Below, one piece after another: positions 2,041-30,700 of a stretch of DNA of 64,000 nt. The stretch comes from an uncultured Oscillospiraceae bacterium. GTDB lineage: Bacteria > Bacillota > Clostridia > UMGS1883. A program made the position numbers and the translations under genes. The notes beneath the pieces were generated by a model, which was given only the letters and a program-made list of their open reading frames with translations, ran no database searches and was not told the DNA's origin. The stretch's first letter is position 1; each line of letters begins with the position of its first letter. The DNA lies in NCBI GenBank assembly GCA_964572985.1, contig CAZNIC010000006.1:5044-69043 (forward strand), in the 5' to 3' direction.

Positions 2041-2709
2041 ATGCCTGGATTTGATGTTGTTTTATTTGATTTTGATGGTACAATTGCAGATACTTCTCCC
2101 GGTATAAAAGAAGGGTTAAGGCATGTTTTTAGTCTTAACAACATGCCTCTCTTGTCCGATGAAGAAATGGATAAATTTATCGGACCACCTCTTGATGATA
2201 GTTTTGTAAAATATTGCGGAGTTACGCTCGAAAAAGCAAAATCAATGGTTCTTGAATTCAGAGCCCATTACCATACAAAAGCAATTGACAAGTTCTATAT
2301 TTACGAGGGATTTAAAGAAGCAATAAAAGTACTTAAGGACAAAAATATTCTGGTGGGTGTTGCAACAAGCAAGCCCGAAATCATGGCTGTTCATATATTG
2401 AAAAAAGCAGGGATTTTTGATTGTTTTGACGTTATTCAGGGGGCAACTCTTGATGGAAAACTTATAAAGAAAAACGATATCGTCCGTCATGTGCTCGATA
2501 AAGAAAACGTGAAGGGCAAACAAGCGTTGATGGTTGGTGATACCGAGTTTGACATTTTAGGCGCCCACATGAATGGCTTACCGGCACTATGGGTTGCGTA
2601 TGGGTTCGGTACACTTGAAAACGCACAAAAAGAAAAACCCGAATATACAGCACAGGATATGACAGAAATGATAGAATTTTTCCAAACCTTTGACAGGAGA
2701 GAATTATGA
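2041..2709 (+). CDS. HAD-superfamily hydrolase (phosphoglycolate phosphatase / 5'-nucleotidase-like, subfamily IA)
   Basis: N-terminal motif I 'FDFDGTIADT'; motif III/IV 'VGDTEFDILGA'. RBS GGGGGAG. Confidence 0.8.
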   Translation: MPGFDVVLFDFDGTIADTSPGIKEGLRHVFSLNNMPLLSDEEMDKFIGPPLDDSFVKYCGVTLEKAKSMVLEFRAHYHTKAIDKFYIYEGFKEAIKVLKDKNILVGVATSKPEIMAVHILKKAGIFDCFDVIQGATLDGKLIKKNDIVRHVLDKENVKGKQALMVGDTEFDILGAHMNGLPALWVAYGFGTLENAQKEKPEYTAQDMTEMIEFFQTFDRREL

Positions 2710-4601
2710 ATTTATTGACGGCACATGAGCTTACAAAATCTTTCGGAGAAAGAGATTTGTTCAAAAATGTAAGCTTCAATATTGATGAAAAGTCAAAGAT
2801 AGGCCTCATAGGCGCGAACGGAGTGGGCAAAACCACTCTTTTTCGCGTTATTTGCGAGGAAGAAAGCTACAAAGGTACGCTTAATAAAAACAACCTTTTA
2901 AAAATCGGCTATATGGAGCAGACTCCGCCCGAGGACGATAAAACAGACGCGTATTCATATGTGCTGAATATATTTTTGCCTCTTCGGGAAATGGAGGAGC
3001 GTCTTGAAGAGATACGAAGCAAAATCGAATCGGGGAATTCTGACACAGACAGCCTTATTAATCAGCAAGAAGCTCTTAACAATGAGTATATTGATAAGGG
3101 CGGATTAGTGTACAAATCAAAATGTCGCAGCATGCTCTTGGGTTTGGGTTTTACTGAAAACGAGCTTTCCAATAAACTGAGCGAGCTTTCGGGCGGTCAG
3201 CGGACAAGGCTTTCTCTTGCAAGAGTTTTGTTATCTGATGCAAATCTTCTGCTTTTAGACGAGCCTACTAACCATCTTGATATTGATGCAATTGTTTTTC
3301 TGGAAGGATTTTTGAAGGAATATAACAAGGCTTTTATAGTAATAAGCCATGACCGATATTTTCTTGATAAAGTTACAAACCGAACCTTTGAACTTGAATG
3401 CGAACGCCTTACACAATATGATGGCAATTATTCTGTTTTTGCCGAAAAGAAAAAAGCCGCATATCAAGCGGCAGTGAAAAAATACGATAATACAATGAAG
3501 GAAATCAGCCGTATTGAGGGCATGATTGAACAGCAACGCCGTTGGAACAGGGAAAAGAATATAAAAACAGCCGAAAGCAAGCAAAAAGTAATAGACAAGC
3601 TGGAAAAAAACCTTGAAAAACCCACGTCCAACAACGAGAGGGTGAAATTTAAGTTTACAACAACCCTTGAGGGCGGAAATGATGTTATGGTCATAAAAAA
3701 TCTTTCAAAAAGATACGGTGAAAAGAAACTTTTTGAAAATGTAGACTTGTTGTTAAAGAAAAAAGAGTGTGTTTTTGTTCTCGGTCCGAACGGGTGCGGA
3801 AAATCAACATTCTACCGCATTATAAAAGGTGAAGAGGTTGCCGACAGCGGAACAGTTAAATTTGGAAGCAACATCGAATGCGGATACTACGACCAGACCA
3901 GGGGAGATATTGCAGGTGGCAAGACTATTCTTGACGAGGTTTGGGACAGATATCCGAAAATGACACAGACTCAGGTCAGAAATGCACTGGCTGCTTTCCT
4001 CTTTACGGGGGATGAGGTTTTCAAAGAAACTGATTTACTCTCAGGTGGCGAAAAGGCGAGGATTGCTCTTCTTTGTCTCATGCTCAGGGGTTCAAATTTC
4101 ATCTTGTTGGATGAACCCACAAACCATCTTGACCTTGTTTCGCGAGAAGCCTTAGAAGACGCCATTGAAGATTTCGGCGGAACTGTTTTTATCATAAGCC
4201 ATGACAGATATTTGATAAACAAATTAGCGGACAAGCTTTTTGTGTTTGAAAACGACACTATTGTTGAATATAACTGTACCTATGATGAGTATATGGCGCG
4301 AAAAGAAACATCTGATAAGCCTGTAAAGGAAATTTCTGTGCCGAAAGCCGAAAAAATTAATGACTACAAAGCACAAAAAGAAAAAGAGCGTAATAAACGA
4401 ATGAGGACAAATCGTATTGCAAAGCTCGAACTGTTGATAACCGAAACCGAAGAAAAAATCGATGCTGTCTCAGAAGAGATTAATACTGTCGGTGCCGATT
4501 ATCAGCGCCTTATGGAATTAAACGCATCTTTAGACTCACTTAACGGTGAACTTCTTGATTATATGGAAGAATGGGAAAAGCTCAGCGAGGAGGATGATTA
4601 A
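2706..4601 (+). CDS. ABC-F family ATPase (two ABC domains, no TMD, C-terminal coiled coil). A translation factor or ribosome-protection-type protein.
   Basis: Two Walker A motifs ('GANGVGKTT', 'GPNGCGKST'), two 'LSGGQ/LSGGE' signatures and a K/E-rich C-terminal tail. ATGA overlap with the upstream gene. Confidence 0.85.
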   Translation: MNLLTAHELTKSFGERDLFKNVSFNIDEKSKIGLIGANGVGKTTLFRVICEEESYKGTLNKNNLLKIGYMEQTPPEDDKTDAYSYVLNIFLPLREMEERLEEIRSKIESGNSDTDSLINQQEALNNEYIDKGGLVYKSKCRSMLLGLGFTENELSNKLSELSGGQRTRLSLARVLLSDANLLLLDEPTNHLDIDAIVFLEGFLKEYNKAFIVISHDRYFLDKVTNRTFELECERLTQYDGNYSVFAEKKKAAYQAAVKKYDNTMKEISRIEGMIEQQRRWNREKNIKTAESKQKVIDKLEKNLEKPTSNNERVKFKFTTTLEGGNDVMVIKNLSKRYGEKKLFENVDLLLKKKECVFVLGPNGCGKSTFYRIIKGEEVADSGTVKFGSNIECGYYDQTRGDIAGGKTILDEVWDRYPKMTQTQVRNALAAFLFTGDEVFKETDLLSGGEKARIALLCLMLRGSNFILLDEPTNHLDLVSREALEDAIEDFGGTVFIISHDRYLINKLADKLFVFENDTIVEYNCTYDEYMARKETSDKPVKEISVPKAEKINDYKAQKEKERNKRMRTNRIAKLELLITETEEKIDAVSEEINTVGADYQRLMELNASLDSLNGELLDYMEEWEKLSEEDD

Positions 4602-5614
4602 TGCCTTATATAGGTATAATCCGCGGAGTTGGTGAAGGATATTACGCAACAGGTTATATCATAAAAATTATCAAAGCACTTAATCGCAGATTCCGTTCCA
4701 AGATCAAATTTGAAGAGGTTAATCTTGGTGATTATACCCGTCACGGTTGCGAATTGGACCGAAACGAGATAACAAAAATTCGAAGCTGTGACGCTGTGTT
4801 TTCAGGTGATATGCAGGGTATTAATCCTATAGATTATTCGATTGCAGATATTGCAATGATGCTTGATAACTGTATTGAATATACTTGTATTTCGGGACTT
4901 TCGGATTACGGCAACGTTAACGTAATTGTTGCTTCGTATTTTGATGGTGGCACGAGGCTCAGGTACAATGTCACCAATGTTGACGGATGCAGCGAAACCA
5001 GAATATGCAGTACTCATACTGCGATGGGCATTGTAAGGCATGTAAGCCGCGAGTGCGAAAACCGAAGGAGAAGGCTTGCATTTGTAAGCGATGCGGATAA
5101 TGAATACTGTGCAAATCTTTTTTATAAAAAATTTGAGGACTTCACGCTGCCTCTACCTAATTTTCATATGATAAAATTTTCAACTGCGGATATTGCGTAT
5201 GAAGTACTGTTTGACCCGGCACAGTTTGATATGATATTTGCATCCAAGTCATTTTCAGACTATGCGTGGGGAATGTACCGTTCGAGGCTTGATGAGCATT
5301 TTGTTGCATATACGAGATATGCGAAGAGCAAAAGCGTCTATTATGTAAAAGGATTATACTCAAATTTAGCGTCGGCAGATGAAATCCCAAGTATGTGTTC
5401 ATATATCATCGCATTAAGCGATATGTTAAAAATTGAGTTTAACATGAACAAAGAAGCAGAACACCTAAGGCTTGCACTTGATGCCGTTATAAAGACGGGA
5501 AAATCAGTTCTTGAAACGGAAAGCTTTATTCAAGCTGTAATTGATGAACTAAAACGCCCCGTTGAAAGAAAACACTCTAAATCAATAAAAGGAAAAAGAT
5601 ATATCATAAAATAA
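4601..5614 (+). CDS. Degenerate isocitrate/isopropylmalate dehydrogenase-fold protein (likely a non-catalytic paralog)
   Basis: The sequence aligns along its length with LeuB/Icd. 'IGIIRGVGEGYY' sits where 'IAVLPGDGIGPEV' is. 'CDAVFSGDMQG' sits where 'ADAVLFGSVGGP' is. 'DPAQFDMIFASKSFSDY' sits where '[20 protein letters not shown]' is. The catalytic and NAD-loop residues are replaced. TAATG overlap with the ABC-F stop. Confidence 0.55.
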   Translation: MPYIGIIRGVGEGYYATGYIIKIIKALNRRFRSKIKFEEVNLGDYTRHGCELDRNEITKIRSCDAVFSGDMQGINPIDYSIADIAMMLDNCIEYTCISGLSDYGNVNVIVASYFDGGTRLRYNVTNVDGCSETRICSTHTAMGIVRHVSRECENRRRRLAFVSDADNEYCANLFYKKFEDFTLPLPNFHMIKFSTADIAYEVLFDPAQFDMIFASKSFSDYAWGMYRSRLDEHFVAYTRYAKSKSVYYVKGLYSNLASADEIPSMCSYIIALSDMLKIEFNMNKEAEHLRLALDAVIKTGKSVLETESFIQAVIDELKRPVERKHSKSIKGKRYIIK

Positions 5615-5645
5615 GGCAACGGAATTATCCGTTGCCTTTAAAATT
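5614..5645. terminator. Bidirectional hairpin terminator between convergent genes
   Basis: 'AAGGCAACGGAATTATCCGTTGCCTTTAAAA': a 9-10 bp perfect stem with A/T runs on both sides. Confidence 0.6.
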
Positions 5646-7020
5646 AATAGTTTTCAAGTGTTTTTTCGGCTATTTCAACCGAATACAAAACGGCACTTTC
5701 GCTGGGACCGCCTATAAGGCTTCTGCCTTCAACACAAGCTGTCATGCTGATTGCATCGTAGATATCATTTTCGATATATTCGCTGCATTCCTTCATTTCT
5801 GCGAGTGTTAAATCGTCAAGAGCTTTGTTTGCTTTTTCAGCCATAAGAACCATTCTGCCTACGATTGCATGTGCTTCGCGGAAAGGAACACCCTTCTTTA
5901 CCAGATAGTCTGCAACATCGGTTGCGTTCGCAAAACCGCCCTTTGCACCGTTGAGCATTGTTTCTTTATTGATTTTCATAGTACTGATCATACCGTTAAA
6001 AACGGGAACGCAAAGTTTTACAGTATCGATTGCGTCAAAGAGCGATTCCTTATCCTCCTGCATATCTTTATTATAGGCGAGAGGAATACCTTTCATAACG
6101 GTTAAAAGAGCTGTCAAAGAGCCGTAAACTCTGCCTGTTTTGCCGCGGATAAGCTCTGCAACGTCGGGGTTTTTCTTTTGAGGCATAATAGAGGAGCCTG
6201 TGCTGTAACCGTCATCCATTGTTACAAAACGGAACTCGTTGCTGCTCCACAAAATAAGCTCTTCGGAAAAGCGCGAGAGGTGCATCATTACAAGAGAAAG
6301 ATTGCTTGTTAATTCAATGGCAAAATCGCGGTCTGAAACGCCGTCCAGAGAATTTGTTGTAACAGCTGCAAAACCAAGCTCACGGGCTACCATTTCGCGG
6401 TCAAGCGGGTGAGTAGTACCAGCCAATGCACCGCTTCCGAGCGGCATTACATTTGTTCTCTTATATGTATCATTAAGCCTGTCAAGGTCACGAAGGAGCA
6501 TGTTTACATATGCCATGACATGATGCGCAAATGTGATAGGCTGAGCTTTCTGAAGATGAGTATATCCGGGCATAATTGTCTTGGTGTGAGCTTTTGCAAT
6601 TGCAAGCAGTGAGTTGATAAGCTCAACTATCATGCCTTTTATTTCGCAAATTTCGTCTTTTACGTACATTCTTATATCAAGAGCAACCTGGTCATTACGG
6701 CTTCTGCCTGTATGAAGACGTTTGCCTGTATCACCAATACGCTCAATCAATATTTTTTCTACGTTCATGTGGATATCTTCAGCATCGATTTCAAATTCTA
6801 CTTTGCCGTTTTCAACATCAGAGAGAATTTCACCCAAGGTTTTAATAATAAGCATGCTGTCTTCTTCGGATATAATACCCTGTTTGCCAAGCATACGTGC
6901 ATGAGCAATACTGCCTGTGATATCCTGCTTATACAGCCTTTGGTCAAATCTGATTGAAGAGTTGAAGTCGTCAACCTTTTTGTCGGTTGCCTTTTCAAAT
7001 CTGCCACCCCAGAGTTTCAT
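5644..7020 (-). CDS. argH: Argininosuccinate lyase
   Basis: N-terminus 'MKLWGGRFE'; fumarase/aspartase-family signature '[12 protein letters not shown]'. Confidence 0.95.
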
Positions 7021-29653: not shown

Positions 29654-29684
29654 TCTTCGTGATACTATATAATAAATTAAATAT

Positions 29685-29960
29685 AAAAAGATGTAGGTGG
29701 CGTATTGCTTTTGCAGATACGCATAATAGGGAATCGGGTGCAAATCCCGAACAGACCTGCTGCCGTGATAGGGGAGTTGACCTCACAATGCCACTGAAAC
29801 AATCGGGAAGGCGAGGAAAACGGTGATTCTTGAGTCGGAAGACCTGCCATATCTTTGTACAAATACTTCACAGGTAATTGAAGGGTACACTGTTTGACAA
29901 ATGTTTTTATACACATTTGTTTGTTTTGTGTGCTCACCGTGAAGGTGAGTTTTTTGTTTT
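29685..29960 (+). promoter_or_regulatory. Cobalamin (AdoCbl) riboswitch, copy 1, with an intrinsic-terminator expression platform
   Basis: Conserved core 'AATAGGGAATCGGGTGCAAATCCCGAACAGACC', 'GCCACTG', 'GGGAAGGCG' and B12-box 'AGTCGGAAGACCTGCC' (29833-29848). A terminator hairpin 'CTCACCGTGAAGGTGAGTTTTTTGTTTT' (29934-29960) lies just before RBS AAGGAGG. Confidence 0.9.
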
Positions 29961-29973
29961 CAAGGAGGTTTTT

Positions 29974-30408
29974 ATGAAAAGATTATTTGCTTTACTTATT
30001 ACCATTGTAATGTGCTTTTGCTTGTGTAGCTGTGGCGCCGCCAAAACAGTTGCCGTAAAAGTGGAAATTGATTGCTCCGAAATCATCAAAAATTATGATG
30101 ATCTTTCACCTGAATTAAAAAATGAAAAATATGTTCCTTCAAACGGCATTATCCTCAAGGAAACTACCATAGAGGTAAAAGAAGGAGCTTCTGCGGTTGA
30201 TATTTTGAAAGCTGTTTCTAAGGAATATAACATTCCGATTGATGTGTCGGCAGGTTATGCAAAAAGTATTAATCATATTTCTGAAAAATCCTGCGGCGAA
30301 ATGTCGGGTTGGGTTTACGAAATAAATAACGAAATGTTCATGGATGAATACAAGGCTAAAGACGGTGACCTTATCACTTGGAAATTTGTTTGCAGCTTTG
30401 ATTATTAA
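29974..30408 (+). CDS. DUF4430 (transcobalamin beta-domain-like) lipoprotein; putative cobalamin-binding protein
   Basis: Lipobox 'LCSCG'. DUF4430-type motifs 'SNGIIL', 'SAVDILK', 'GYAKSINHISEKSCGEMSGWVYEINNEMFMDEYKAKDGDLITWKF'. It sits directly downstream of cobalamin riboswitch 1. Confidence 0.75.
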   Translation: MKRLFALLITIVMCFCLCSCGAAKTVAVKVEIDCSEIIKNYDDLSPELKNEKYVPSNGIILKETTIEVKEGASAVDILKAVSKEYNIPIDVSAGYAKSINHISEKSCGEMSGWVYEINNEMFMDEYKAKDGDLITWKFVCSFDY

Positions 30409-30432
30409 TTTTTAATTTAGAATTTAATATAT

Positions 30433-30700
30433 AAAGAAGTAGGTGGCGTATTGCTTTTTGGCAGATACGCATAATAGGGAATCGGGTGAAAATCCCGAAC
30501 AGACCTGCTGCCGTGATAGGGGAGTTGACCTCAAAAATGCCACTGGGTAACCGGGAAGGCGAGGAATACGGTGATCCTTGAGTCGGAAGACCTGCCACTT
30601 CTTTGTACCAAATACTTCACAGGATTTTGAAGGGTACGTTAATTAGGGCATTTTATGAAATGCCTTCTTTGAGTATGCTTTTATTCCTGTAAAAATGCAA
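30433..30700 (+). promoter_or_regulatory. Cobalamin (AdoCbl) riboswitch, copy 2 (~90% identical to copy 1)
   Basis: The same conserved blocks as copy 1, including B12-box 'AGTCGGAAGACCTGCC' (30581-30596). The expression platform diverges, ending in a short 'GGGCATTTTATGAAATGCC' hairpin before RBS AAGGAGG. Confidence 0.9.

Follow-up and report, generated by a model that had tools for sequence, protein, structure and literature searches.

Why is a protein that resembles a central-metabolism dehydrogenase, and that lacks the residues of that chemistry, encoded directly behind an ABC-F translation factor? The question is raised by a locus in the window, by which we mean the whole 64,000-nucleotide stretch of DNA analysed here, from an uncultured Oscillospiraceae bacterium. 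The gene in question (positions 4601–5614, + strand) codes for a 337-aa protein of IPMDH/IDH fold without the canonical catalytic and NAD-binding residues, an assignment based on the ORF list, the fold, profile–profile alignment and a family alignment (A1); we refer to it as IDHL. ORF coordinates and Pfam matches bear out the first-pass annotation, which had placed a HAD, ABC-F, IDH-like block after gerM: GerM (1125–2030) comes first, followed by a HAD-IA phosphatase (2041–2709, + strand), the ABC-F ATPase (2706–4601, + strand) and IDHL. By ORF, Pfam and NCBIfam, the phosphatase is PpaX/phosphoglycolate-phosphatase-like, and its DxDGT and GDTxxD motifs are intact. Pfam and NCBIfam assign to the ABC-F protein (631 aa) two ABC domains, an inter-domain linker (ABC_tran_Xtn) and a C-terminal coiled coil. 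A G+C-rich hairpin in the sequence (5613–5638, no strand assigned) lies between the stop codon of IDHL and the convergent stop codon of argH, and is likely a bidirectional terminator that closes the operon.

The GC content of the IDHL gene is ∼0.38–0.41 and that of most of the surrounding 9.5 kb is 0.35–0.48; this comparison of base composition gave no sign of a recent transfer of the gene. A search of the window for a canonical leuB or icd found none, and the PADLOC defence-system models did not match the locus.

IDHL is predicted to have an IDH/IPMDH fold

The end-to-end homology to LeuB/Icd proposed from the sequence proved to be weak but real when Pfam, phmmer, a family profile, hhalign and an AF2 model searched with Foldseek were applied. 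The Pfam Iso_dh model (PF00180) matches the window protein at E = 1.8e-4 and 21.3 bits, which does not reach the gathering score of 27, and the NCBIfam LeuB-type models give it ∼20 bits against cut-offs of 350–680. PF00180 is matched at E ≤ 0.01 by 18 of the 32 family members, the best at 8e-6. With phmmer, the best PDB match is T. maritima LeuB (1vlc, E = 3e-6), and the family profile matches PDB LeuB at E = 2e-12. Profile–profile comparison with canonical IPMDHs using hhalign returned probabilities of 99.6–99.9% over 314–326 aligned columns, supporting the IDH/IPMDH fold. As can be seen from the AF2 model (pLDDT 86.3, pTM 0.87), the best 50 Foldseek matches are all IPMDH, HICDH or IDH structures, with E ∼1e-19, TM scores of 0.71–0.81 and 14–18% identity. 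IDHL is thus predicted to have a full-length isocitrate/isopropylmalate dehydrogenase fold, with two domains and the dimer ‘arm’ included, and the comparisons argue strongly that it descends from a 3-isopropylmalate/isocitrate-type dehydrogenase and is restricted to one lineage.

Two top non-family profile matches were considered as intermediate forms and rejected. The LeuB-like gene P0043 has ilvB-ilvN as its context. P0045, which follows non-coding DNA, codes for another IPMDH-like protein, itself partly degenerate; no ABC-F gene is linked to either of them.

About 40 full-length IDHL homologues were found, at 29–80% identity. The family alignment comprises 32 clusters of ∼337 aa at 43–100% identity; of its 27 invariant columns, many are polar. 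More divergent members lie at 38 and 29% identity. Alignment A1 was used for the genome scan; in A2, extended to the most divergent members, no stretch is conserved enough for this. The family amounts to 10 clusters among 1.84 billion representatives and was detected in 7 of 185,579 GTDB species, all uncultured Oscillospiraceae/Clostridia. IDHL is confined to a few uncultured Oscillospiraceae of the ruminant gut.

Most canonical catalytic and cofactor residues are not conserved

Residues were compared using the numbering of T. thermophilus IPMDH (TtIPMDH), with register shifts of ±4 columns allowed. Two of the replacements proposed earlier, GDGIGPE to GVGEGYY in the NAD loop and NLFGDILSD to KSFSDYAWG, are seen in the alignments. 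Residues 9–15 (GVGEGYY, 4625–4645, + strand) align with G8-D-G-I-G-P-E14 and keep the three glycines of the scaffold; throughout the family this remodelled first loop reads G-x-G-E-G-Y, with E12 invariant. Residues 216–224 (KSFSDYAWG, 5246–5272, + strand), the counterpart of NxFGDILSD, align with N237-IFGD241ILSD245. The alignments also place residues 163–169 (SDADNEY, 5087–5107, + strand; family consensus KDxDNEY) opposite the catalytic-Lys loop VDKANVL. Here D164, N167 and E168 are (near-)invariant and no Lys is conserved: K185 aligns with the invariant D164 or with the variable column 165, and the nearest Lys, at position 163, occurs in 21 of the 32 members, the window protein having Ser there.

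At the substrate-binding positions, R94 is replaced by S, D or G, R104 by a deletion or a non-basic residue and R132 by Ser (91% of members), and no conserved Arg or Lys occurs within ±4 columns of any of the three across the family. Near Y139 there is likewise no conserved Tyr, the column varying among K, A, R and L. The HGSAPD part of HGSAPDIAGK maps to K-S-x-x-x-N-S, and the positions of N286/P287, which do not vary in the canonical set A3, are occupied by S and a hydrophobic residue. At the D245 position the family has an invariant Gly (G224). The D241 position (D220 in IDHL) stays D or E in 97% of members, an acidic residue stands one position past D217 in 94%, and an Asn adjoins the N187 position in 94%. 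The claim that the catalytic and substrate-binding segments are all replaced therefore stands for the Arg triad, the Tyr, D245 and the NAD motif, but not for the N187-, D217- and D241-like positions, which survive.

Taken against LeuB, the Arg triad, the Tyr139/Lys185 pair, the full Asp triad and the NAD elements are not conserved. Since the residues for NAD-dependent oxidative decarboxylation are lost, IDHL is not expected to act as a LeuB or an Icd. A pseudo-enzyme is a catalytically deficient homologue maintained by selection (PMC5106787); the key residues of IDHL are lost, yet the gene is intact and under purifying selection, which supports the earlier view of IDHL as a pseudo-enzyme with respect to its ancestral chemistry.

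IDHL is probably translationally coupled to the upstream ABC-F gene

The two genes share the TAATG junction described in the first-pass annotation, the ABC-F stop codon TAA (4599–4601) overlapping the IDHL start codon ATG (4601–4603). A Shine-Dalgarno sequence for IDHL, GAGGAGG (4587–4593, + strand), lies within the last ABC-F codons (…EED D*), 7 nt 5′ of the ATG. This arrangement recurs in the family: in all 16 loci showing the junction (16/16), the distance from the ABC-F stop to the IDHL start ranges from −19 to +2 nt, and a GAGGAGG or GAGGAG core is found inside the final ABC-F codons at most of the 16, the window included, with the printed junctions of loci L014 and L018 lacking it. With the two genes overlapping or almost touching, and with its Shine-Dalgarno sequence placed inside the last ABC-F codons, IDHL is probably translationally coupled to the ABC-F gene. 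Adjacency is kept across three downstream contexts (argH/argG; mreB/purA; a P-loop protein with HTH-TPR), and IDHL was not seen away from an ABC-F gene among 1.84e9 representative proteins or 185,579 GTDB species. Since the whole family belongs to a single narrow clade with largely shared synteny, this adjacency counts as only weakly independent evidence.

Co-occurrence of the two genes holds in one direction: IDHL is always directly behind the ABC-F gene, but ABC-F occurs without IDHL, as in the orthologous loci L015 and L019 and in locus L016. At sister-lineage loci, an ABC-F of 57–59% identity lies in the same tsaD-tsaE-FTHFS / RR-HK-GerM-ABC-F synteny, and IDHL and the HAD gene are both missing. 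Since these sister lineages hold an orthologous ABC-F without IDHL, the ABC-F does not need IDHL. The coupling of an ABC-F gene to one for a dehydrogenase-fold protein appears to be specific to the clade. No clade-specific insertion or docking feature was found on the ABC-F protein, only a slightly shorter C-terminus. Its Walker and signature motifs are intact, and among solved structures E. coli YheS is nearest to it (E = 6e-83). A full-text literature search found no report of a dedicated partner protein for a bacterial ABC-F. A partnership between IDHL and the ABC-F protein is plausible but unproven.

A basic C-terminal tail and a possible accessory role

On the evidence of pLDDT, composition and alignment, IDHL ends in a conserved basic tail, KRPVERKHSKSIKGKRYIIK (5552–5611, + strand), with the family consensus KPVxTKYSKKxxxxxRYIK. 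The tail has a pLDDT of 44–56 in the AF2 model and is predicted to be disordered. It carries 5–10 K+R versus 0–4 D+E, on a body that is acidic (pI ∼5.3), and K327 and Y334 are conserved across the family. Canonical IPMDH has no counterpart of the tail, and a comparison of the tail with PDB sequences gave no match.

As the best explanation we tentatively favour a non-catalytic accessory protein that works with the upstream ABC-F translation factor. IDHL, probably made from the same mRNA as this YheS/YdiF-like ABC-F, would act as an acidic dimer and scaffold, with a small ligand or a cation bound in its remodelled cleft. The basic disordered tail would contact the ABC-F protein or the ribosome, and a cellular signal received through IDHL would modulate ABC-F action. 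A more specific form of this proposal, which we regard as unlikely, is that a bacterial housekeeping ABC-F here has an accessory subunit dedicated to it, the first of its kind: IDHL would be a dead dehydrogenase reused as a dimer that senses a ligand or cation, docks through its tail on the ABC-F protein or the ribosome and tunes the rescue of stalled ribosomes.

Alternative explanations

The cleft may instead have been rebuilt. IDHL would in this case be a neo-functionalised enzyme or a small-molecule or metal binder with a metabolic role, possibly together with the HAD phosphatase, and its position would reflect operon organisation only; we consider this unlikely. It draws on the invariant polar residues that lie on canonical elements, namely E12 and D70 in the NAD loops, D115 and R121 in the substrate loop and D164/N167/E168 in the catalytic-Lys loop, together with G224 and N255, and on the acidic residues at or beside D217 and D241 and the Asn beside N187. 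An acid-rich cleft remodelled around conserved D, E, N and R residues may have gained a new activity, or bind a ligand or metal. However, family-invariant columns are 2.6-fold enriched at canonical active-site positions without reaching significance (Fisher p = 0.08), and at the 90% conservation level no enrichment is present; these values therefore do not separate a dead site from a rebuilt one. Neither the NAD-binding motif nor any substrate arginine is left, and evolution has been very fast for a housekeeping enzyme. As for the phosphatase, which keeps its catalytic motifs, it has the same presence/absence pattern as IDHL at the loci examined; since the two are gained or lost together, the phyletic pattern fits a metabolic pairing just as well. 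Against such a pairing, HAD and IDHL are never adjacent, the ABC-F gene always lying between them, and the HAD–ABC-F junction (an overlap to a 57-nt gap) is looser than the ABC-F–IDHL junction.

It is improbable, in our view, that IDHL is a marginal relic, that is, a duplicated dehydrogenase that has lost its function and is held by weak selection (for instance on folding or non-toxicity, or through effects of termination-reinitiation on the operon) with no specific molecular role. The tiny distribution of the family, with sister lineages lacking IDHL, would fit a relic, as would its rate of change: IDHL is the fastest-evolving gene of its neighbourhood, with a dN of 0.2–0.47 and an amino-acid identity of 41–71%, compared with 78–94% for ABC-F and 92–98% for ArgG. 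The ORF is nevertheless intact and of near-constant length (313–348 aa) down to 29% identity, the tail is conserved, and the ribosome-binding site and the tight junction are maintained. Values of dN/dS are well below 1 (∼0.13–0.18 where dS could be estimated), to be read as rough upper bounds since every pair available has a saturated dS (>1, often undefined). Because the ORFs are intact, 27 columns are invariant, dN/dS is low and the ribosome-binding site is conserved at most junctions, we conclude from these sequence data that IDHL is not a pseudogene and is retained under purifying selection. The dN of IDHL is 4–5 times that of the ABC-F gene, a disparity that was counted against a partnership of the two proteins.

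Finally, we consider it very improbable that IDHL is the non-catalytic chain of a heterodimer with a true IPMDH/IDH of the same cell, as the regulatory subunits of eukaryotic NAD-IDH (IDH3 beta/gamma) or yeast Idh1 are: the arm hairpin and the counterpart of the dimer-interface helix (ASYFDGGxxxR…GCxETRxCS, FDxIFASxxF) are among the most conserved stretches and the Foldseek matches include IDH3 alpha-chain structures from alpha/beta and alpha/gamma heterodimers, but neither the window nor any locus seen links IDHL to a canonical leuB or icd, the residues that a partner would receive in its active site (K185′, D217′) lack proper conservation, and the strict ABC-F coupling is left unexplained.

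Comparison with known systems

IDHL resembles LeuB (PF00180; T. thermophilus 2Y42/4F7I, T. maritima 1VLC) in its two-domain fold, similar length and arm hairpin. The two also share the FD…F helix, a GxGxG scaffold in the first loop and an RRR-hydrophobic strand that precedes the catalytic-Lys loop. IDHL differs in its low identity (14–18%) and sub-gathering Pfam score, in the family-wide absence of R94, R104, R132, Y139 and D245 and the lack of HGSAPD and N286/P287, and in having an extra basic disordered tail and a location outside any leu/ilv operon. IDHL has no Pfam or NCBIfam assignment above threshold, and a permissive pipeline could mislabel it as LeuB/Icd.

Human IDH3 beta/gamma and yeast Idh1, regulatory subunits of NAD-dependent IDH, have the same fold, have lost catalysis and act through binding. 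They keep most of the ligand-binding residues, bind citrate or ADP and pair with a catalytic paralogue, whereas IDHL retains little of the substrate and nucleotide sites and has no catalytic paralogue linked to it. If the accessory reading is true, IDHL would be a clear prokaryotic case among the few pseudo-enzymes known to descend from dehydrogenases of central metabolism.

The upstream ABC-F protein, with its two ABC domains, linker and C-terminal coiled coil, is like E. coli YheS and the YdiF type of Firmicutes. The functions of the ABC-F family have been reviewed (PMC6723617), and for YheS, relief of stalling at specific nascent chains has been described (PMC11162784, PMC13249984). At present, the ABC-F proteins of bacteria are viewed as ribosome factors that act on their own; a conserved partner co-translated with one of them, if real, would offer a way to study how ABC-F activity is regulated. 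In eukaryotes, the ABC-F protein Gcn20 belongs to the Gcn20–Gcn1–Gcn2 module, in which Gcn2 has a HisRS-like pseudo-enzyme domain (PMC6723617, PMC12012509). The parallel with ABC-F/IDHL is conceptual, an ABC-F protein combined with a dead enzyme homologue as sensor; the folds and lineages are unrelated and there is no homology. By analogy, which we do not offer as evidence, an IDHL that serves as an accessory subunit would be a bacterial counterpart of the Gcn20 pseudo-enzyme sensors in logic, not in ancestry.

A divergent IPMDH fold with an altered active site

The IDH-like gene (IDHL; positions 4601 to 5614, + strand) encodes a 337-aa protein for which the first-pass annotation had proposed homology to LeuB/Icd from end to end and a pseudo-enzyme pattern. 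With the single sequence the signal is weak: Pfam Iso_dh gave 21.3 bits (cut-off 27), NCBIfam models about 20 bits where cut-offs are 350 or more, and 1vlc was matched at E = 3e-6. A family profile, but not the single sequence, gave a firm match to PDB LeuB (E = 2e-12), and hhalign of the family against a canonical set of isopropylmalate dehydrogenases (IPMDHs) aligned 314–326 columns at a probability of 99.6–99.9%. This set was anchored on Thermus thermophilus IPMDH (TtIPMDH), whose sequence was checked against published residue numbering. From the family alignment AlphaFold2 gave a model (pLDDT 86.3, pTM 0.87) that is confident up to the last ~20 residues; when it was compared with the PDB using Foldseek, the 50 best matches were all IPMDH, homoisocitrate dehydrogenase or IDH (E about 1e-19, TM 0.71–0.81, identity 14–18%). 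The end-to-end homology is therefore confirmed.

TtIPMDH residues were mapped through the profile alignment and re-checked allowing a register error of ±4 columns. In the IDHL family R94 is replaced by S/D/G, R104 falls in a deletion without a nearby basic residue, R132 is Ser (91%), Y139 is variable (K/A/R/L) and D245 is an invariant Gly. K185 lies opposite invariant D164 or variable column 165; a Lys found one column before is limited to 21/32 members, and the window protein has Ser there. HGSAPD has become K-S-x-x-x-N-S, and N286-P287, invariant in the canonical set, is Ser-hydrophobic. What is kept comprises D/E at the D241 position (97% of members), D/E one residue past D217 (94%), Asn one residue past N187 (94%) and, in the loop that corresponds to GDGIGPE, all three glycines (G-x-G-E-G, in which E12 never varies). 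Since this catalytic and NAD-binding inventory is largely lost, NAD-dependent oxidative decarboxylation is very unlikely, and the pseudo-enzyme label is justified for the ancestral chemistry. We conclude that IDHL is firmly established as a divergent IPMDH-fold protein and not a LeuB/Icd-type dehydrogenase; within this well-known fold it represents a new variant family that lacks annotation.

Cys (2.7%) and Tyr (6.5%) are unusually abundant in IDHL relative to neighbouring proteins. Several of the cysteines are conserved, C136 in every member and C152 and C170 in most, and they might form a metal site. A different, partly degenerate 316-aa IPMDH-like protein was seen in other metagenomes (L021, 90–1040; L022, 24–974). 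Its NAD loop reads MADDGANLD and another residue stands in place of the second metal Asp, but the catalytic Lys and two Asp remain. It adjoins a GNAT and an acyl-carrier protein, with ABC-F linkage absent.

IDHL follows an ABC-F gene

The 631-aa protein encoded upstream is a bona fide ABC-F: it carries two ABC_tran domains, ABC_tran_Xtn and ABC_tran_CTD (Pfam), exceeds the NCBIfam cut-off for 'ribosomal protection-like ABC-F' at 418 bits, and has E. coli YheS as its nearest solved structure (E = 6e-83). ABC-F proteins in general are treated elsewhere (PMC6723617, PMC11162784, PMC13249984). ATPase motifs are intact in the ABC-F of this clade, and comparison with sister ABC-Fs revealed no clade-specific insertion, merely a slightly shorter C-terminus.

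The ABC-F stop codon (TAA, 4599–4601, +) shares its last base with the IDHL ATG (4601–4603), giving TAATG, and a Shine-Dalgarno sequence (GAGGAGG, 4587–4593, +) lies inside the last ABC-F codons. Further upstream are a HAD-IA phosphatase gene (2041–2709, +) that overlaps the ABC-F start, gerM (1125–2030) and a histidine kinase gene. Downstream, a G+C-rich hairpin with an 11-bp stem and T-runs on both sides (5613–5638) sits exactly between the convergent IDHL and argH stops and is probably their shared bidirectional terminator; argH-argG lies beyond. The GC content of IDHL is unremarkable.

In 16/16 loci with a visible junction, spanning 29–100% IDHL identity, the distance from the stop codon of the orthologous ABC-F to the IDHL start ranges from -19 to +2 nt, and most of these junctions have GAGGAGG or GAGGAG as a core shortly before the start. 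Most loci share the order tsaD-tsaE-FTHFS / RR-HK-GerM-HAD-ABC-F-IDHL / argH-argG / ruvCAB, which alone is weak evidence of linkage. The pair is retained in two loci where downstream synteny is broken, with mreB/purA following IDHL in L017, and a P-loop protein, an HTH-TPR regulator and GNATs in L013. In L013 the upstream fragment is an ABC-F C-terminus with 68% identity, whereas its IDHL is merely 29% identical. L014 and L018 are further HAD-ABC-F-IDHL cases. That IDHL is always placed directly behind a YheS/YdiF-like ABC-F is firmly established. In the metagenome contig of L005 (about 6050–6460), the gene call for the ABC-F lacks 119 codons, leaving 512 aa, and the protein match begins at residue 104; either misassembly or a frameshift in this sample could be responsible.

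The ABC-F orthologues fall into about 37 clusters at ≥70% identity, matching the IDHL family in size, and a very large set at 59% or below. Three loci were inspected from the latter. In the sister lineages represented by L015 and L019 the tsaD-tsaE-FTHFS / RR-HK-GerM-ABC-F order recurs without HAD and IDHL, and L016 lacks both in a different context. HAD has a matching identity gap (≥57% inside the clade, ≤42% outside). From this gap and the joint absence in L015 and L019, it appears that HAD and IDHL, on either side of one conserved ABC-F, were acquired or lost jointly.

Elsewhere in the window, two full-length cobalamin riboswitches (29677–29865 and 30423–30613, +; 113 and 108 bits) lie 560 nt apart. 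The first precedes a DUF4430 protein gene (29878–30408, +); the second precedes, on the same strand, genes for a 719-aa beta-propeller/PQQ-like protein, a second DUF4430 protein, a prenyltransferase-like protein and ECF-type transporter parts (CbiQ, double ABC ATPase), running to about 37429. The arrangement suggests a locus for corrinoid capture and uptake under B12 control.

A narrow family under purifying selection

A search of 5.8 billion proteins returned only 32 IDHL clusters (about 337 aa, 43–100% identity), all unannotated or 'hypothetical'. When 1.84 billion representatives were searched exhaustively with the profile, 10 family clusters appeared (E ≤ 1e-47), separated by a gap from ordinary IPMDHs (E ≥ 1e-8). 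Only 7/185,579 GTDB species representatives carry IDHL, all uncultured Oscillospiraceae/Clostridia MAGs, several from ruminant rectum; restriction to one narrow clade is firmly established. In the alignment 27 columns are invariant and about 48 nearly so, and the main motifs persist even in the members furthest removed in sequence (38% and 29% identity).

IDHL is the fastest-evolving gene of the neighbourhood (41–71% identity, versus 57–84% for GerM, 61–86% for HAD, 78–94% for ABC-F, 88–96% for ArgH and 92–98% for ArgG in the same genome pairs), its dN of 0.2–0.47 being four to five times that of ABC-F. Since dN/dS is about 0.13–0.18 where dS, otherwise saturated, is defined, the data indicate purifying selection, the weakest in the operon. 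That IDHL is kept by selection is firmly established.

Possible functions

The best-supported reading, which we hold tentatively, is that IDHL assists the ABC-F as an accessory protein without a catalytic role. The first-pass annotation had suggested a regulatory or scaffolding partner; that proposal is still a reasonable hypothesis, and the tight, rearrangement-resistant coupling speaks for it, as would be expected of proteins needed in fixed proportion. The final ~20 residues are conserved, basic (5–10 K/R vs 0–4 D/E) and predicted to be disordered, with the consensus KPVxTKYSKKxxxxxRYIK and an invariant Y334. The profile alignment showed no equivalent in canonical IPMDHs, and no similar sequence was found among PDB sequences. 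The body without the tail is acidic (median pI about 5.3), as in canonical IPMDHs. On such an acidic, dimeric body the basic tail would be a plausible docking element.

The main rival, which we consider rather unlikely, holds that the site was rebuilt to bind a ligand or metal, or that a new enzymatic activity arose, perhaps tied to the co-occurring HAD phosphatase. The old active-site elements carry family-invariant polar residues (E12, D70, D115, R121, D164, N167, E168, N255), so erosion alone does not describe the cleft. At canonical site positions invariant columns are enriched only 2.6-fold (p = 0.08), a value compatible with either a dead or a rebuilt cleft. A weakly selected relic would suit the rapid divergence of IDHL and is improbable given its maintenance by selection. 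That IDHL regulates a true dehydrogenase as a subunit in the manner of IDH3 is very improbable, and would leave the strict coupling to the ABC-F without an explanation.

The wider significance of the family is limited by its narrow distribution and fast evolution. Full-text literature searches turned up neither a description of a bacterial ABC-F partner protein nor one of a pseudo-enzyme derived from LeuB. The Gcn20–Gcn1–Gcn2 module, with its HisRS-like pseudo-enzyme, offers a parallel to ABC-F plus IDHL by analogy only.
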